A DNA stretch of 64,000 nucleotides from Candidatus Saccharibacteria bacterium GW2011_GWC2_48_9 (GTDB taxonomy: Bacteria; Patescibacteriota; Saccharimonadia; Saccharimonadales; Saccharimonadaceae), in contig LCPR01000001.1 of NCBI GenBank assembly GCA_001003725.1, positions 23,410-87,409 on the forward strand. The letters are read 5' to 3'. The translations under genes were made by a program, and so were the position numbers. The notes beneath the pieces are model-generated. The model was not told the DNA's origin. It did no database searches and was given only the letters and a program-made list of their open reading frames with translations. Each line of letters begins with the position of its first letter. The stretch's first letter is position 1. Positions 32,014 to 48,790 of this stretch are shown here, in pieces.

Positions 32014-32090
32014 AGGGGTATAGCTCAGTTGGCTAGAGCACAGGTCTCCAAAACCTGGTGTCGCGGGTTCGAGTCCCTCTACCCCTGCCA
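32014..32090 (+). tRNA. trpT: tRNA-Trp(CCA)
   Basis: AGGGGTA/TACCCCT acceptor stem, CT-CCA-AA loop, TTCGA, encoded CCA; TTTACA-17-TATAGT promoter upstream. Confidence 0.95.
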
Positions 32091-43728: not shown

Positions 43729-44880
43729 CTACACTGCCTCTTGGAACTCTGCAGGAACTGGCGCCTCAAATACCTTTCGAATACCACCAGGAAGTGTCAC
43801 TTCTAACTTGTGGGCATGAAGGTACATGCGATCGGATGCTTCTGAGCCATAAACTTTATCGCCCACTATCGGCGTACCGAGATAGGCCATATGTACGCGA
43901 AGCTGGTGTGTGCGCCCTGTTTTTGGTCTTAGGGCAACTAAAGAGTGTGCTTCGCTTGACTCAATAACCTCGTATACCGTTTCGGCAGTCTTGCCTACTG
44001 CGTCAACGCGAAAGGTGCTTGGTTGGGATGGATTGCGACCGATTGGTAAATCGATCTTTGCCACTGCTTGCTCGGGCACGCCCGACACGACTGCTGCATA
44101 TTCTTTTTTGATAGTACGATTGGTAAACTGCTGAGAAATCTTACGTGCAGCTTCGTCGTTTTTTACCATCAGCAACACTCCACTAGTATCGCGATCGAGC
44201 CGGTGAACAATACCTGGTCGGTTGGTTTCGCTTTTATAGGTGGTCTTGGGCTTAATAAGGTCTGCCGCTGTATACTCTTCTACGAGCGCACCTTTTGCAT
44301 GTGTCAGCAAGCCAACCGGCTTATTGATAACGAGGACATCGTTGTCTTCATAGAGAATTTCAATATCAGGCTTCTCGATAGCTACTTCTACTGTCGCTAT
44401 CGTAATATCGTCTGTCTCTTTGACAGGGTATTTAGATGAGGTCTCAACTTCGCCGTTGACACTCACTTCACCCCGTAAAATACGTTTTTTATAGGTGCTG
44501 CGAGATTCTTTGCCGAAGCGCTCCACCATAGCAATGTCAAGCCTGGCAGACTGCGGTTCATCGCGCAGTAAGTACACTTCTTTGCCACGATACGGCAGCG
44601 CATATGTCGTTAAGATTGCGTCGCCCGGAAGCGGTAGCAAGTTGTAATAATGCTCTATGCCAGATTCCTCGGCCATTTCTTGGATATAGTCTTCGTCGTC
44701 TTCGGCAGAATTGTCCACCAGTATAGCGTACTGTTTCTTTCCGCACGTAAAGCGAATTAGCGTGTTTCGCTCCTGTGGCTTAGATTTGGCGATGCGTTCG
44801 ATATGTCGCGGCATCACGTCATCTTTTACTTCGTGAAACAATCGCAATATCGCGATGATGTCGGATGAGTCAAATTTCAT
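43729..44880 (-). CDS. RluA/RluD family pseudouridine synthase with extra N-terminal domain
   Basis: S4 domain, VINKPVG, HRLDRDTSG, GRTHQLRVH. Confidence 0.95.
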   Translation of the reverse strand: MKFDSSDIIAILRLFHEVKDDVMPRHIERIAKSKPQERNTLIRFTCGKKQYAILVDNSAEDDEDYIQEMAEESGIEHYYNLLPLPGDAILTTYALPYRGKEVYLLRDEPQSARLDIAMVERFGKESRSTYKKRILRGEVSVNGEVETSSKYPVKETDDITIATVEVAIEKPDIEILYEDNDVLVINKPVGLLTHAKGALVEEYTAADLIKPKTTYKSETNRPGIVHRLDRDTSGVLLMVKNDEAARKISQQFTNRTIKKEYAAVVSGVPEQAVAKIDLPIGRNPSQPSTFRVDAVGKTAETVYEVIESSEAHSLVALRPKTGRTHQLRVHMAYLGTPIVGDKVYGSEASDRMYLHAHKLEVTLPGGIRKVFEAPVPAEFQEAV

Positions 44881-44884
44881 TAGT

Positions 44885-46006
44885 TCAGTTCCTTGGCCTG
44901 AGGCCTACAGCTTGCTGCACACCTAGAAGCGTCGCGTTTGCCTGTTTGTTCATTGTTGATTCAGATGTTGCGAGCTTTGCGAGCAGCGCTTGGCTATCTA
45001 TGTTCGTGAGGCGCACCTGGAAGCCTGTCAAAAACTGCGATAACTCGTCGGCGACAATCTTCTTAAAATCTCCGTAGCGTTCGAGCCCTTCAAACGCAGC
45101 CGCTACTTCTTGCACGGGTTTGCCCCGCAGAAGTGCTAATATATCAAGCAAGTTTGAAATGCCCGGCTGGTTGGTTGGGTCATAGCGTACGCTAGCTTTG
45201 TCGTCGGTAGTGGCTGACATGACTTTCTTGGCAGCTATAGACGGATCGTCACCCAGAAAGATGACGCCTTTGCCTGTCGCATCTGACTTACTCATCTTCT
45301 TGGTAGGGTCTACAAGATCCATGATGCGAAGTCCTTGGTCTTTGCCGAAGAACTCGTGCTGTTTTTTGACAGGCTCGGGTATAGTGAAGAGTTCACCGAA
45401 GCGATGATTCATTCGCCCTGCAATATCGCGTGCGAACTCGAGGTGCTGTGTTTGGTCGTCGCCGACGGGTACATACTTCGCACCATAGAGCAGGATGTCG
45501 GCAGCCATGAGAACTGGATAATTAAATAGACCTAGTGAGGCGATATTTGGGTTCAAATCAATTTCTTCACCATCCTCCGTAGTTAGAGGTTCACCGTTTT
45601 GAGATAATAATATTACCGGCTCTTCAACTTTTTGGCGTTTCTCTTTGAACTGTGTCATGCGCGACATCTGCCCAAACCCAGTAAAGCAATCCAGAATCCA
45701 AGTTAGCTCACTATGCGCAGGTACATAGCTCTGCCGGTATAAGTGAATGTTGTCGTTGTCGAGTGGCAATCCAGCGGCCGCGTAAAGCTTCGCGTTGTTC
45801 ATGATCTGGCCTTGTAGCTCGCTGTGGTCAATCGGCGTCGTGAAACTATGCAAGTCAGGTATGAACATATTAACCTGGTAATCAGCCGAGCGAGTCTTCG
45901 CCATATCAATAATAGGTAGCATTGCACCGAAGTAGTTGCCTATGTGCAAATCGTTATTCGCTCGAAGGCCAGTGAGTATTACAGGTTTGGTCATTGTGTT
46001 CTTCAT
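44885..46006 (-). CDS. trpS: Tryptophanyl-tRNA synthetase
   Basis: HIGN, YPVLMAADIL, VGDDQ, KMSKS. Confidence 0.97.
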   Translation of the reverse strand: MKNTMTKPVILTGLRANNDLHIGNYFGAMLPIIDMAKTRSADYQVNMFIPDLHSFTTPIDHSELQGQIMNNAKLYAAAGLPLDNDNIHLYRQSYVPAHSELTWILDCFTGFGQMSRMTQFKEKRQKVEEPVILLSQNGEPLTTEDGEEIDLNPNIASLGLFNYPVLMAADILLYGAKYVPVGDDQTQHLEFARDIAGRMNHRFGELFTIPEPVKKQHEFFGKDQGLRIMDLVDPTKKMSKSDATGKGVIFLGDDPSIAAKKVMSATTDDKASVRYDPTNQPGISNLLDILALLRGKPVQEVAAAFEGLERYGDFKKIVADELSQFLTGFQVRLTNIDSQALLAKLATSESTMNKQANATLLGVQQAVGLRPRN

Positions 46007-46710
46007 TATACCATAATCTCCTCTGTTACGCTTGCCTTAAAGCCCAGATAGTCTGTCTGTTTTTTATACGAGTTGTTTCCTGTCATGATTGGCACGAAAC
46101 CAAGTTCATGCTCTTGAAAGTTCACAAAGCTTTTGGCTTGTTGTGGCAAGATCTCTTGTTTGTATATTTTTCCGAGCATTTTATAAAGCTTCTTATGTGG
46201 GTAAGGCTGTTCGTGCATGATAAAATTTTGTATATCTTGCGCAATTGCAGCGAGCAGTGCGGGGGTGATGGCTTTGTTTGGCACTTCGTAACCGATTATA
46301 TTGTCACCTACCGTCGCTATGTCCCCCATGGGCTGCACCTGAAGGATCGTATCTATGTGCGACGCTCTTAGGAATTTCTTTTTTATATCGCTACTTAAAT
46401 CGTGAACGATTAAGCAGTTAGGTTGCACGCAATTGGTCGTATGCATATCAAGTACAATGTCTGGCTGAGTAAGGTGTATATATTCTTGAATCTCACGAGC
46501 TCGGGTTGCTTCATATTCATCACCCCCGATACCGTAGCTTCGATTCAGGTCTTTATCTGTATAGCGTAGACTCTTTGCGTACGCTCTCGGATTACCGATA
46601 ACAAAATCTATGCTTTCAAGCAGTACTGAGCGCTGTTTGAGTAGTCTTTCGTATAACTTTATACCGAGAAGCTCATTGCCATGTGTTGCTGCTAGTATTA
46701 AAATTCTCAC
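46006..46710 (-). CDS. Aspartoacylase / succinylglutamate desuccinylase family deacylase
   Basis: THGNE, GNP, RY..DLNRSY, LDMHT zinc-deacylase motifs. Confidence 0.88.
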   Translation of the reverse strand: MRILILAATHGNELLGIKLYERLLKQRSVLLESIDFVIGNPRAYAKSLRYTDKDLNRSYGIGGDEYEATRAREIQEYIHLTQPDIVLDMHTTNCVQPNCLIVHDLSSDIKKKFLRASHIDTILQVQPMGDIATVGDNIIGYEVPNKAITPALLAAIAQDIQNFIMHEQPYPHKKLYKMLGKIYKQEILPQQAKSFVNFQEHELGFVPIMTGNNSYKKQTDYLGFKASVTEEIMV

Positions 46711-47325
46711 TTCTTTTCCTTCCTCACCCTTGCTGCTAGTATAAGCGCATTTCGCGAACTCACAAGGCCTGGAAACTGCTGCATAAGTGTCGCTTTTCCC
46801 GGCACGAGCGACTTACTCGCAGGGTCCTCTCCGATGAATAGACCCTCATTTCCATATCTGTCTTCGTGGTACACAGCGTCGGTATAGGTTGCGTGAGCCA
46901 TTGCTGCAGCCATATCTCGCAGCTCCTCTTCCTCGACGAGGGGATATAGTTCACTTGATTCTCTTTGAATCATTTTTATCACTGCAGGATTCCTCGTGTA
47001 CGTAGTCAGGTACTCCGGGCTATACTCATTGATTAATGCACGAAGCATAGACGTACCGATACCCTGACGTTGCACAGATGGATGAACTACTCTTCCTGCA
47101 AGTTCAAGCGCTCGCCCGCCAAAGACATCCTCGTATCATAGAGAAAGCCATGAGCCCACCCCTGTCGTGTACAAGTTGAACCATGTCGGCAGTCTGAATG
47201 TGGCTTATACTATCTTCTCGCATTTGAACACTGTCGCCATGGCCAAAGCCGATGCCTGCAAGATGCGCCAGCTGGTCAACATCTTTGTTGGTAAATTGTT
47301 CTGGTGTTTTTGTAGTGGTACGCAT
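46707..47325 (-). CDS. GNAT acetyltransferase split over two frames; candidate +1 programmed frameshift (about 205 aa)
   Basis: Frame 0 from ATG 47325 (SD AAGGAG) to TGA 47104; +1 frame carries LELAGRVVHPSVQRQGIG (motif A) and YTRNPA to 46707. Confidence 0.75.
47118..47133 (-). promoter_or_regulatory. prfB-like +1 frameshift cassette with UGG in the A site
   Basis: Minus strand CGAGGA-TGT-CTT-TGG-C versus prfB AGGGGG-TAT-CTT-TGA-C. Confidence 0.5.
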
Positions 47326-47494
47326 TCTTTTCTCCTTATGCGTTACGATTATAGAAGAGGCCACTGGCGGCCTCTTTTATATTTTCAATTTTTGCATGCT
47401 ATTTCAAAACACAAAACAAGCCGTCCGGAGAAAGGCGGATACGCCAATTTTTGTACTGAGTGGCTGATGCGGTCATACGAAGATAATATACTAA

Positions 47495-48343
47495 CTACCA
47501 CGACTTGGCAAGCATTATTTTGCGAATCACTTCCGCATATGCTCTGCTGCGATTGACTTCGTGACCCGCTACGATGGCGTGCACGACACAATTTGGATTA
47601 TGTTTTGCTATAGACTTGTAGTACTTCTTGATGACATAGGGATCAAGCCTGCCGTAGACCAACGATGTAGGTACGTTAGTTTCGATAAGCCATTCGAATG
47701 CAGATTGATTTTCTATAGCCATCTCTATCGAGCGTGCTACCGAACGAATGTTTTTATCGTCTACTACAAAATCTGCGTCTATGAACTTAACTCTTCTCGC
47801 GTAGTAGTTGAGCTTTTTGGTAAAGTCGGGCTTCTCGCGAAGGCTACGAAGCGCATTTTTGTAAAATGTTTCACCGTCGGGCAACTTAAACTTGTTGAAG
47901 ATGTAACGGGGTTCAGACTTATATAGCGGTGTACTACACAGGATTAAACCCTTGAGCCGAGAAGGGTACTTTTTTGCATATTCTATGGCAACCAATGCGC
48001 CGAGCGAGTGTCCGACAACAATAATATCTCCAGTGACCTTGTGGCGGCGTAGTGTGGCGCGCAGGCTTATCGCCTGTTCCTCTGCGTTGTAGCTGCGCCA
48101 GTCTGGCTTAGGCGACTCTCCGAATCCGAGTAAGTCTACCGCGACTACTCGCGACTTCGTGGGTAGTATATCGAACGTGGCAGCCCAGACCTTGTGTGTT
48201 CGTGCAAGCCCGTGTACGAACACAATCACAGGCGAACCCGTCTCTTCTGCAGCTTTATCAAACCCCACGTGAAGAGTGTGAGGCAATCCAAGTACCTTGT
48301 GCACGAGATTTTCACGTAGCATATAGTTCCAGTTTGACACCAA
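47495..48343 (-). CDS. Alpha/beta hydrolase
   Basis: VHGL, DLLGFGES, GHSLG, late His; start uncertain. Confidence 0.9.
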   Translation of the reverse strand: MVSNWNYMLRENLVHKVLGLPHTLHVGFDKAAEETGSPVIVFVHGLARTHKVWAATFDILPTKSRVVAVDLLGFGESPKPDWRSYNAEEQAISLRATLRRHKVTGDIIVVGHSLGALVAIEYAKKYPSRLKGLILCSTPLYKSEPRYIFNKFKLPDGETFYKNALRSLREKPDFTKKLNYYARRVKFIDADFVVDDKNIRSVARSIEMAIENQSAFEWLIETNVPTSLVYGRLDPYVIKKYYKSIAKHNPNCVVHAIVAGHEVNRSRAYAEVIRKIMLAKSW

Positions 48344-48376
48344 AAAACCCTACCGTCAAATCGATAGGGTTTTTTG
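48341..48376 (-). terminator. Terminator of ribosomal superoperon
   Basis: caaaaaaccct ... agggttttttg. Confidence 0.75.
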
Positions 48377-48391
48377 TTTCTAGAAAGTCGC

Positions 48392-48790
48392 TTAGCGCTT
48401 CGAGAACTGTTCGCGCTTACGAGCAGAGCGAAGACCATACTTCTTGCGCTCTTTCTCGCGTGAATCGCGTTTGAGCATCTCTGCCTTCTTGAGTGTCGGA
48501 CGCAAATCTGCGAAACCAACTGTAATTGCTTTCGCAATAGCCAGTTTGATTGCATCGACTTGTCCTGCGAATCCGCCACCGCTTACACGGATAGTGATAT
48601 CGAACTCTTTTTGCTTACCTACGACTGCCAAAGGGTCTGTAATTTCTGCAAGCATCGGCTTGTTACCAGAAAGATAGTCTTCAGCAGGCTTATCGTTGAT
48701 TGTCACATTACCCTTACCTTTGTAAAGACGGGCGCGAGCTGTTGAGCTCTTGCGACGACCAAGTCCGTAGAAATACGTAGCATCAGCCAT
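48392..48790 (-). CDS. rpsI: 30S ribosomal protein uS9
   Basis: GRRK, ERKKYGL..AR..QFSKR. Confidence 0.98.
   Translation of the reverse strand: MADATYFYGLGRRKSSTARARLYKGKGNVTINDKPAEDYLSGNKPMLAEITDPLAVVGKQKEFDITIRVSGGGFAGQVDAIKLAIAKAITVGFADLRPTLKKAEMLKRDSREKERKKYGLRSARKREQFSKR

Follow-up and report, generated by a model that had tools for sequence, protein, structure and literature searches.

Leader-peptide attenuators are known at trpL and pheM-pheST of Escherichia coli, and one reportedly controls trpRS1 of Streptomyces coelicolor. Predictions for Streptomyces place classical attenuators also ahead of trpS and leuS (PMC1262725). Programmed +1 frameshifting at prfB-derived sites and at the site of Ty1 depends on the speed at which the A-site codon is decoded, and a 2016 review of recoding treated the starvation-specific products of shifting at hungry codons as a mere possibility (PMC5009743). 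Here we describe a locus of Candidatus Saccharibacteria bacterium GW2011_GWC2_48_9 in which counterparts of both kinds of system occur together, in a run of genes coding for a GNAT-family protein, an AstE/AspA-family zinc amidohydrolase (the deacylase) and the tryptophanyl-tRNA synthetase TrpRS (trpS). The window, that is the whole stretch of DNA analysed, is 64,000 nucleotides (nt) of contig LCPR01000001.1, and all features of the locus given below lie on its minus strand. Saccharibacteria are reduced epibionts and are generally thought to take amino acids from their host; the genome examined here is of 1.07 Mb and 98% complete. We consider, with a probability of about 0.65, that the region is a tryptophan-starvation operon with two sensors of charged tRNA-Trp, an attenuator in its leader and a +1 frameshift site inside the GNAT gene, and that trpS is transcribed also from a -10 box of its own. 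At the level of sequence, comparison with relatives shows that these elements are present, that they are conserved and covary, and that they are linked to trpS. The GNAT, deacylase and trpS genes form a genuine operon of this minute symbiont.

The leader element resembles classical leader-peptide attenuators in its translated leader with the cognate codon, its mutually exclusive terminator and antiterminator helices and the cognate synthetase placed under its control. It differs from them in its leaderless leader mRNA, in its single Trp codon within the motif (Y/F)-W-F-T-D-T, in the variable enzyme genes found before trpS, in having no Rfam match and in its lineage, Patescibacteria, in which no such switch is described in the literature searched; nor did that literature yield a paper dealing with either attenuation or frameshifting in Saccharibacteria. 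The predicted leader promoter (47511-47483) has a -35 box TTGCCA (47511-47506), a 17-nt spacer and a -10 box TATTAT (47488-47483), and matches at 10 of 12 positions in a consensus scan. With only 6 nt from the end of its -10 box to the leader ATG, the transcript is expected to be leaderless; relatives too have a -10-like box here, 6-9 nt ahead of their leader ATG. The leader open reading frame (ORF), MTASATQYKNWRIRLSPDGLFCVLK followed by a stop, comprises 25 codons (47476-47399), and its only Trp codon is codon 11 (47446-47444). Homologous leaders at about 60 loci have one Trp at codon 9-13, often within (Y/F)-W-F-T-D-T.

The attenuator RNA proper (47426-47347) begins with region 2 (47426-47406), followed by region 3 (47385-47366), which is made of an A-rich tract and the 5' arm of the terminator. 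The terminator stem pairs AGAGGCC (47375-47369) with GGCCTCT (47362-47356) and is followed by a weak U tail, UCUAUAAU (47355-47348). Region 1 starts 4-7 nt after the leader UGG. Helices were evaluated on an alignment of 18 sequences (A3) and compared with slid controls. In the terminator helix (3:4), 88.5% of cells are paired, against 35-57% in slid controls, and 2 pairs are changed on both sides. The 18-base-pair antiterminator (2:3) is paired in 91% of cells (slid controls 40-55%) and has 8 pairs changed on both sides; on four of the five measures used, none of 500 shuffles comes up to the observed value, and on the remaining one no more than 8 do. Helix 1:2 is paired in 76% of cells, with slid controls at 24-57% and little covariation. 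Region 2 copies the 3' arm of the terminator, and both change together among relatives, GACGG occurring with CCGTC and GGCGG with CCGCC. Minimum-energy folding of the window leader gives the antiterminator form.

A covariance model of this element (R1) matches the window at 47347-47476 with E = 1e-13 and recovers matches in 159 of the 401 genomes of the order, mostly one per genome with some tandem pairs. Forty fresh R1 matches were then fetched, chosen by RNA score alone. A gene for TrpRS lies downstream on the same strand in 39 of the 40, directly next with no gene between in about 24, and a leader with a Trp codon followed by a terminator, found by script in 23 loci, was present in 36 of the 40 fresh ones. 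The exception to the linkage with trpS is locus L131 (G467:C4:80626-85450, minus strand), where the attenuator is followed by a gene for an AlaX-like editing protein and by pheS. In its leader, MDTIIANKGFLFTDTIVAVSSVRL (MDTIIANKGFLFTDT..), Phe-Leu-Phe takes the place of the (Tyr/Phe)-Trp-Phe of the trpS leaders, and the leader reads like a natural codon swap. No Rfam family matched the window at the gathering threshold, and none matched 44500-48500 at E <= 1, Trp_leader (RF00513) and T-box (RF00230) included, so that a T-box or other known RNA family was rejected. Tandem Trp-codon attenuators about 360 nt apart, sometimes with a small ORF between them, precede trpS operons in L101, L115, L129 and L130, and tandem attenuators were also seen in genomes G167, G387, G220, G305, G355, G309 and G193.

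The second element lies within the GNAT gene, which is split over two frames (47325-46707). The 0-frame part (47337-47122 with its Shine-Dalgarno sequence AAGGAG at 47337-47332) runs from ATG 47325 over 68 codons through Leu CTT (47124-47122), and the same frame ends soon after at TGA 47106-47104. The +1-frame part (47120-46707) runs over 137 codons from GGC 47120 to TGA 46709-46707. Between the two lies a cassette (47132-47104) with a Shine-Dalgarno-like GAGGA (47132-47128), a spacer TGT and the predicted slip site CTT_TGG_C (47124-47118). In the window it has, like the prfB site AGGGGG-uau-CUU_UGA_C, a Shine-Dalgarno-like element 3 nt before CUU, a predicted slip from CUU to UUU by tRNA-Leu(GAG), a following C and an early end of the 0 frame. 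As in prfB, the reader of the A-site codon is tied to the operon, here as charged tRNA-Trp made by the TrpRS encoded there. Unlike in prfB, the A-site codon is the sense codon UGG, the shifted gene is that of an enzyme upstream of trpS, and the Shine-Dalgarno-like element is not universal; the site would work like that of prfB but is not a member of the prfB family. The hungry-codon site CUU_AGG_C of yeast Ty1 likewise has CUU in the P site, a sense A-site codon of a scarce tRNA and a following C; unlike the present site, it belongs to a eukaryote, lacks a Shine-Dalgarno stimulator and is not known to depend on the supply of amino acids (PMC5009743). The genome carries a single trpS, a single tRNA-Trp(CCA) at window positions 32014-32087 and a tRNA-Leu(GAG).

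Conservation of the slip heptamer extends over 15 GNAT loci from 7 GTDB families. In 14 loci the GNAT gene is broken at one and the same codon, with CTT_TGG_C in 13 and TTT_TGG_C in L038, and the 0 frame of these 14 stops 2-12 codons past the heptamer. Counting all 17 shift sites that we found, the P-site codon can re-pair in the +1 frame everywhere (CTT_T at 16 sites, TTT_T at 1), the A-site codon is UGG at every one and never an in-frame UGA, and a Shine-Dalgarno-like GGAG, GAGG or GGGA core stands 3 nt upstream of the slip codon in about 11. Unbroken relatives of the GNAT are L030, L007 and L015. The first of these reads ..YRKCL-GG.. (cgg aaa tgt CTC GGT GGG), and the position of the slip is thereby fixed, since L030 keeps to the 0 frame through Leu and to the +1 frame from Gly. 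The conceptually joined protein aligns without gaps to L007 and with a one-residue gap to L015, and its N-terminal part is 39-51% identical to relatives. The junction peptide of the shifted product would be ..SMIRGCLGGRALELAGR.., and the unshifted fragment would end in ..CLWRASA.

Gene callers split or truncate these genes in all database entries found, and all 19 related clusters in a set of 5.8 billion proteins are C-terminal fragments. Such splitting is what a pseudogene or an assembly error would give. This explanation is extremely unlikely here and was rejected, as the same break with the same heptamer is conserved in 14 independent assemblies of 6 GTDB families, both halves of the GNAT are free of stops and conserved, no homopolymer occurs at the site, and the joined GNAT folds in a structure model as a single domain. 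The lack of a homopolymer also led us to reject transcriptional slippage. Likewise, a placement of the shift further upstream, by quadruplet reading at the rare Arg codon CGA/CGG, which its conservation had suggested, was abandoned, the conservation of Arg being that of the Shine-Dalgarno-like GGAG and L030 following the 0 frame as far as ..CL.

A programmed shift at CUU_UGG remains the reading that we prefer. A genome-wide search for breaks of this geometry gave 12 candidates, among which the GNAT is the only genuine same-family break; candidate C28, of the same geometry, was rejected as the def/fmt junction. Elsewhere, CTT_TGG with a frame break was found at three further places, all between an attenuator and trpS. 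One (L042, G454:C13, position about 1487) is in the same GNAT family, as tat CTT_TGG_C about 10 residues upstream of the usual site. Another (L118, G312:C22, oriented position about 567) is tat CTT_TGG_A in a gene for an Asp/Glu-type racemase, whose 0 frame reads ..KEQLYYLW.. and +1 frame GDKKFTHIVIACNTAH... The last (L117, G430:C8, oriented position about 618) is GGAG-tat-CTT_TGG_C in a gene without an assigned family. The sites of L117 and L042 look like independent origins. The prfB of the genome itself (G000:C12:6667-7221) is without a programmed frameshift.

The original prediction had taken the GNAT, the deacylase and TrpRS for a translationally chained module, on the strength of two overlaps that are indeed present. 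The GNAT +1-frame stop TGA (46709-46707) overlaps the deacylase start GTG (46710-46708) as GTGA at 46707-46710, and the deacylase stop TAA (46008-46006) overlaps an ATG (46006-46004) as TAATG at 46004-46008. It was also correct that only frame-shifted ribosomes can reach the GTGA junction, the 0 frame ending earlier, at 47106-47104; coupling from the GNAT to the deacylase hinges on the frameshift, as the 137 GNAT codons up to GTGA lie in the +1 frame. Its broader claim, of three genes that form a set connected with the supply of Trp, is supported as well, by the Trp-codon leader attenuator and the A-site Trp codon and not by the overlaps. By a crude gene model of the whole genome, a 4-nt or 1-nt stop/start overlap is possible at 76 of 653 same-strand neighbour pairs, or about 12%, and overlaps alone are therefore unremarkable. 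The overlap of GNAT stop and deacylase start is kept in all 8 loci examined, as ATGA or as the 8-nt ATGAATAA, and the deacylase (46710-46006, 234 amino acids) has a Shine-Dalgarno sequence of its own.

The junction with trpS (46006 or 45994 to 44885; TIGR00233, 265.7 bits) is of another nature. Its TAATG overlap is not a conserved element: trpS of relatives begins M-T/S-K-P-V-I-L-T-G, which corresponds to the window ATG at 45994-45992 (MTKPVILTG). An extended -10 box TGgTATAAT (46013-46005, with TATAAT at 46010-46005) contains the deacylase stop, and in most deacylase-bearing loci the TAA stop of the deacylase is the TAA within the TATAAT box of trpS. The distance of the box from the trpS start is conserved at 9-10 nt (6-11 nt when all loci examined are counted), and nearly every relative, whatever the gene upstream, has a TATAAT-like box 8-11 nt ahead of the conserved start. 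Genome-wide, an exact TATAAT stands 6-11 nt upstream of the ATG in 82 long ORFs, with a sharp peak typical of leaderless mRNAs, which seem to be common in this genome. Because it is conserved across relatives and fits this genome-wide leaderless signature, TGgTATAAT is best read as the -10 box of trpS, with ATG 45994 as the conserved start and the TAATG overlap as a by-product of the box. The caveat attached to the original prediction, that trpS might have an independent promoter here, was thus well founded.

These observations bear on whether a translational chain, from frameshift through GTGA coupling to TAATG coupling, could be the main way in which TrpRS rises when Trp-tRNA is short. Both overlaps exist, an in-frame ATG within TATAATG recurs in L010, L011 and L030, and re-initiation at the TAATG ATG on read-through mRNA is plausible, since no Shine-Dalgarno sequence precedes ATG 45994 in the window. 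We nevertheless regard the chain as quite improbable in that role, given that in nearly all relatives trpS retains a -10 box and a leaderless start of its own and that most relatives either place GGAG between this box and the trpS start codon or leave a gap, of as much as 69 nt, behind the deacylase. Moreover, the deacylase has its own Shine-Dalgarno sequence, the attenuator stands directly before trpS, with no intervening gene, in about 24 of the 40 loci, and GNAT and deacylase are also found away from trpS. A link from the frameshift to trpS by Rho-dependent polarity was rejected too: the Rho RNA-binding domain (PF07497) was not found in the 98%-complete genome, control genomes being positive, and premature termination in the 0 frame is therefore unlikely to affect trpS through polarity. 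The part of the original prediction that made the translational chain into trpS the main control of TrpRS is accordingly not supported in that form, and the attenuator together with the -10 box of trpS takes its place in the two-sensor operon proposed here.

The distribution of the genes shows how far the arrangement extends. The AspA-like deacylase occurs in 25 of the 151 genomes of the family and is missing from two congeners. Among its full-length homologues, trpS is directly next in 10 and a GNAT homologue comes before in about 11. An order-wide search found the GNAT in 13 more genomes of about 11 other GTDB families, almost always in the order rpsI-(hydrolase)-GNAT-(deacylase)-trpS, and a scan of all GTDB species confined it to Saccharibacteria. 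The linkage of GNAT, deacylase and trpS, for which the original prediction had called for a gene-neighbourhood survey, therefore recurs in relatives and is not unique to this genome. A broken GNAT and deacylase lie after rpsO, away from trpS, in genome G134, behind an attenuator with tandem Trp codons. In L030 and L038, trpS directly follows the GNAT with no deacylase between, and in L041, L104 and L107 the gene just before trpS codes not for the AspA-type enzyme but for an M20 deacylase of ArgE/DapE type, a non-orthologous replacement.

Such a pattern could also be inherited synteny in a compact genome, with a frameshift that is constitutive or merely tolerated and enzymes that have nothing to do with Trp. 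The similar overlaps at 12% of gene pairs, the synteny of the block from rpsI to trpS-rluD-holB across the order and the occurrence of GNAT and deacylase apart from trpS all agree with ordinary packing of this kind. We find it unlikely, however, in view of the Trp-codon attenuator at the head of the unit, the joint displacement of attenuator, shifted GNAT and deacylase as one unit away from trpS in G134, the appearance of the CTT_TGG motif at four positions or genes, all between attenuator and trpS, and the substitution of an M20 for an AspA-type deacylase at the same position.

With the locus read as a unit under Trp control, the space between attenuator and trpS can be described as holding variable cassettes. 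It may contain GNAT and AspA-like deacylase, GNAT alone, GNAT and M20 deacylase, or nothing. Other cassettes combine a first protein of unassigned family with an M20 deacylase, an Asp/Glu racemase, an M15 D-Ala-D-Ala dipeptidase or a histidine phosphatase. The first protein is of 354 amino acids with the M20 peptidase (L104, L107), 286 with the racemase (L101, L115, L132), 308 with the M15 dipeptidase (L110, L138) and 411 with the histidine phosphatase (L114, L130). None of the four has a Pfam match, and the 354- and 286-amino acid proteins have no significant match among PDB sequences; a relationship of the 286-amino acid family to TrpRS was rejected by profile comparison. In congeners without GNAT and deacylase (L074 = G055, L092 = G533; L073, L086), an ORF of about 65 codons with a good Shine-Dalgarno sequence is found between attenuator and trpS.

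Both enzymes of the window look active, to judge from conserved residues and motifs. The joined GNAT matches PF00583 with 26.7 bits (cut-off 20.7), the separate ORFs scoring nothing in Pfam. It has motif A as QRQGIG (Q/RxxGxG/A) and the family-specific motifs YTRNP and YHxDRY. Its AlphaFold2 model (pLDDT 89.5, pTM 0.83) is one GNAT domain with the junction in a beta hairpin; the protein modelled follows a CGGN=G reading, and residue 69, Trp in place of Gly, is its sole difference from the product of the slip model. Foldseek matches of this model are small-molecule GNATs, namely IAA acetyltransferase, EctA (6sk1), RimI, phosphinothricin acetyltransferase and N-acetylglutamate synthase. GNAT toxins with antitoxins (TacT, AtaT) act on aminoacyl-tRNA and have a small DNA-binding partner, whereas the partner here is a zinc hydrolase and not an RHH protein.

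The deacylase matches PF24827 with 68.7 bits. Residues H10, E13, R57, H90 and E142 are invariant among its homologues and R70 is present in 20 of 22. With mouse aminoacylase 3 (PDB 3nfz, with N-acetyl-L-tyrosine) and human aspartoacylase it shares the HxxE...H zinc site, two carboxylate-binding Arg and a catalytic Glu, the alignment to aminoacylase 3 spanning HGNE, DLNRS and DxH; by its position in the model, E142 would be the equivalent of ASPA Glu178. It is shorter than these two proteins (234 amino acids against about 310) and 20-22% identical to them. The AlphaFold2 model of the deacylase (pLDDT 85.8) superposes on both with whole-chain TM values of 0.65-0.70, the next fold matches being succinylglutamate desuccinylase and DoeB (6twl). 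EctA and DoeB of ectoine metabolism thus represent the same two folds as an acetylation/deacetylation pair acting on an amino acid; unlike in that system, no ectoine genes are present here and the pair is overlapped and predicted to be co-induced. Since GNAT and deacylase would be induced together, their action would be futile if both used one compound.

The original prediction had named salvage of N-acyl-Trp and reversal of acylated Trp-tRNA as possible activities; among the functions considered, salvage of N-acyl aromatic amino acids would be the one that fits the modelled folds best. That the pair recovers L-Trp from N-acyl or other blocked forms of Trp is the most economical assumption, because an enzyme handling acyl groups or amino acids together with a deacylase, racemase or dipeptidase recurs under Trp control; as a specific claim it nonetheless remains doubtful. 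The same regulation could serve another purpose if the two enzymes were induced as a defence, either against a poison of TrpRS or against a wrong substrate. Examples of such compounds would be a Trp analogue, a mimic of an aminoacyl-adenylate and D-Trp. An inhibitor of TrpRS would cause induction by low Trp-tRNA, and enzymes of D-amino-acid type, the Asp/Glu racemase and the M15 D-Ala-D-Ala dipeptidase, take the same position elsewhere. The attenuated trpRS1 of Streptomyces reportedly confers resistance to indolmycin, and antibiotics of the aminoacyl-nucleotide kind are acetylated by GNATs of MccE type; we count both in favour of this alternative. It is very unlikely all the same: the genome has no second trpS of resistance type, by fold the two enzymes match generic amino-acid GNATs and N-acetyl-L-amino-acid amidohydrolases, and nothing in the data is substrate-specific.

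For the starvation operon with two sensors we propose the following course. The promoter would start a leaderless mRNA at the 25-codon leader with its single Trp codon. A ribosome stalled at the leader UGG would cover region 1, so that the 2:3 antiterminator forms and RNA polymerase reads on, and a ribosome reaching the leader stop would allow the 3:4 terminator to form. On read-through mRNA, at GAGGA-tgt-CUU_UGG_C, peptidyl-tRNA-Leu(GAG) would slip from CUU to UUU while the A-site UGG awaits Trp-tRNA. Unshifted ribosomes would release a 73-amino acid fragment; shifted ones would complete the GNAT and end on the deacylase start at GTGA, and both enzymes would be made together. Transcription of trpS would come both from read-through of the attenuator and, as a leaderless mRNA, from its own -10 box. 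We infer the response of attenuator and frameshift to Trp-tRNA from this architecture. The narrower proposal is that charged tRNA-Trp is sensed kinetically at CUU_UGG_C, as a sense-codon counterpart of the autoregulatory frameshift of prfB, and that this site forms with the attenuator a two-step check, of transcription first and of translation next, by which synthesis of the starvation enzymes is confined to a true shortage of Trp-tRNA. It is tentative and has in our opinion somewhat less than an even chance.

Several observations weigh against the operon as we read it. On the side of the attenuator, the U tract of the terminator (UCUAUAAU) is weak in the window genome and in its congener L070, those of other relatives' terminators being canonical, and a simple terminator scan calls the window hairpin on the opposite strand only. 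Helix 1:2 is only 76% paired. The single leader Trp codon is usually flanked by Tyr and Phe codons, and specificity may therefore be aromatic and not for Trp alone. On the side of the frameshift, the Shine-Dalgarno-like element is weak or absent in about 6 of the 17 sites (L009, L032, L033, L041, L042, L118), UGG may perhaps be a generally slow codon, in which case the shift could be constitutive, and the unshifted prfB of this genome cannot serve as a control for shifting at SD-CUU_U. Finally, in a clade of 17 species the GNAT is unbroken, and it and the deacylase are not next to trpS.

A conserved sensor of Trp-tRNA before the sole trpS would mean that host-dependent cells still monitor charging through a classical ribosome-coupled switch. 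If the kinetic-sensor proposal holds, CUU_UGG_C would be a natural bacterial regulatory use of hungry-codon +1 frameshifting, and the GNAT and the deacylase would serve to regain L-Trp from host-derived forms that are acylated or blocked in some other way. The cassette, of about 40 nt and portable, makes it testable whether cells use frameshifting limited by aminoacyl-tRNA as a signal, with natural variants as controls in the unshifted L030 and the pheS-linked Phe-Leu-Phe leader. The variable cassettes under Trp control, in turn, give an indication of how these cells respond to a lack of tryptophan.

Upstream of the leader, the locus contains rpsI (48790-48392) and a gene for an alpha/beta hydrolase (48343-47495), and the gene run continues after trpS with rluD and holB. 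The TrpRS of the window has an insertion of about 28 amino acids (..KVEEPVILLSQNGEPLTTEDGEEIDLNPN.., 45520-45640, codons about 125-150) without counterpart in most relatives, whose TrpRS matches break in two pieces at this point.

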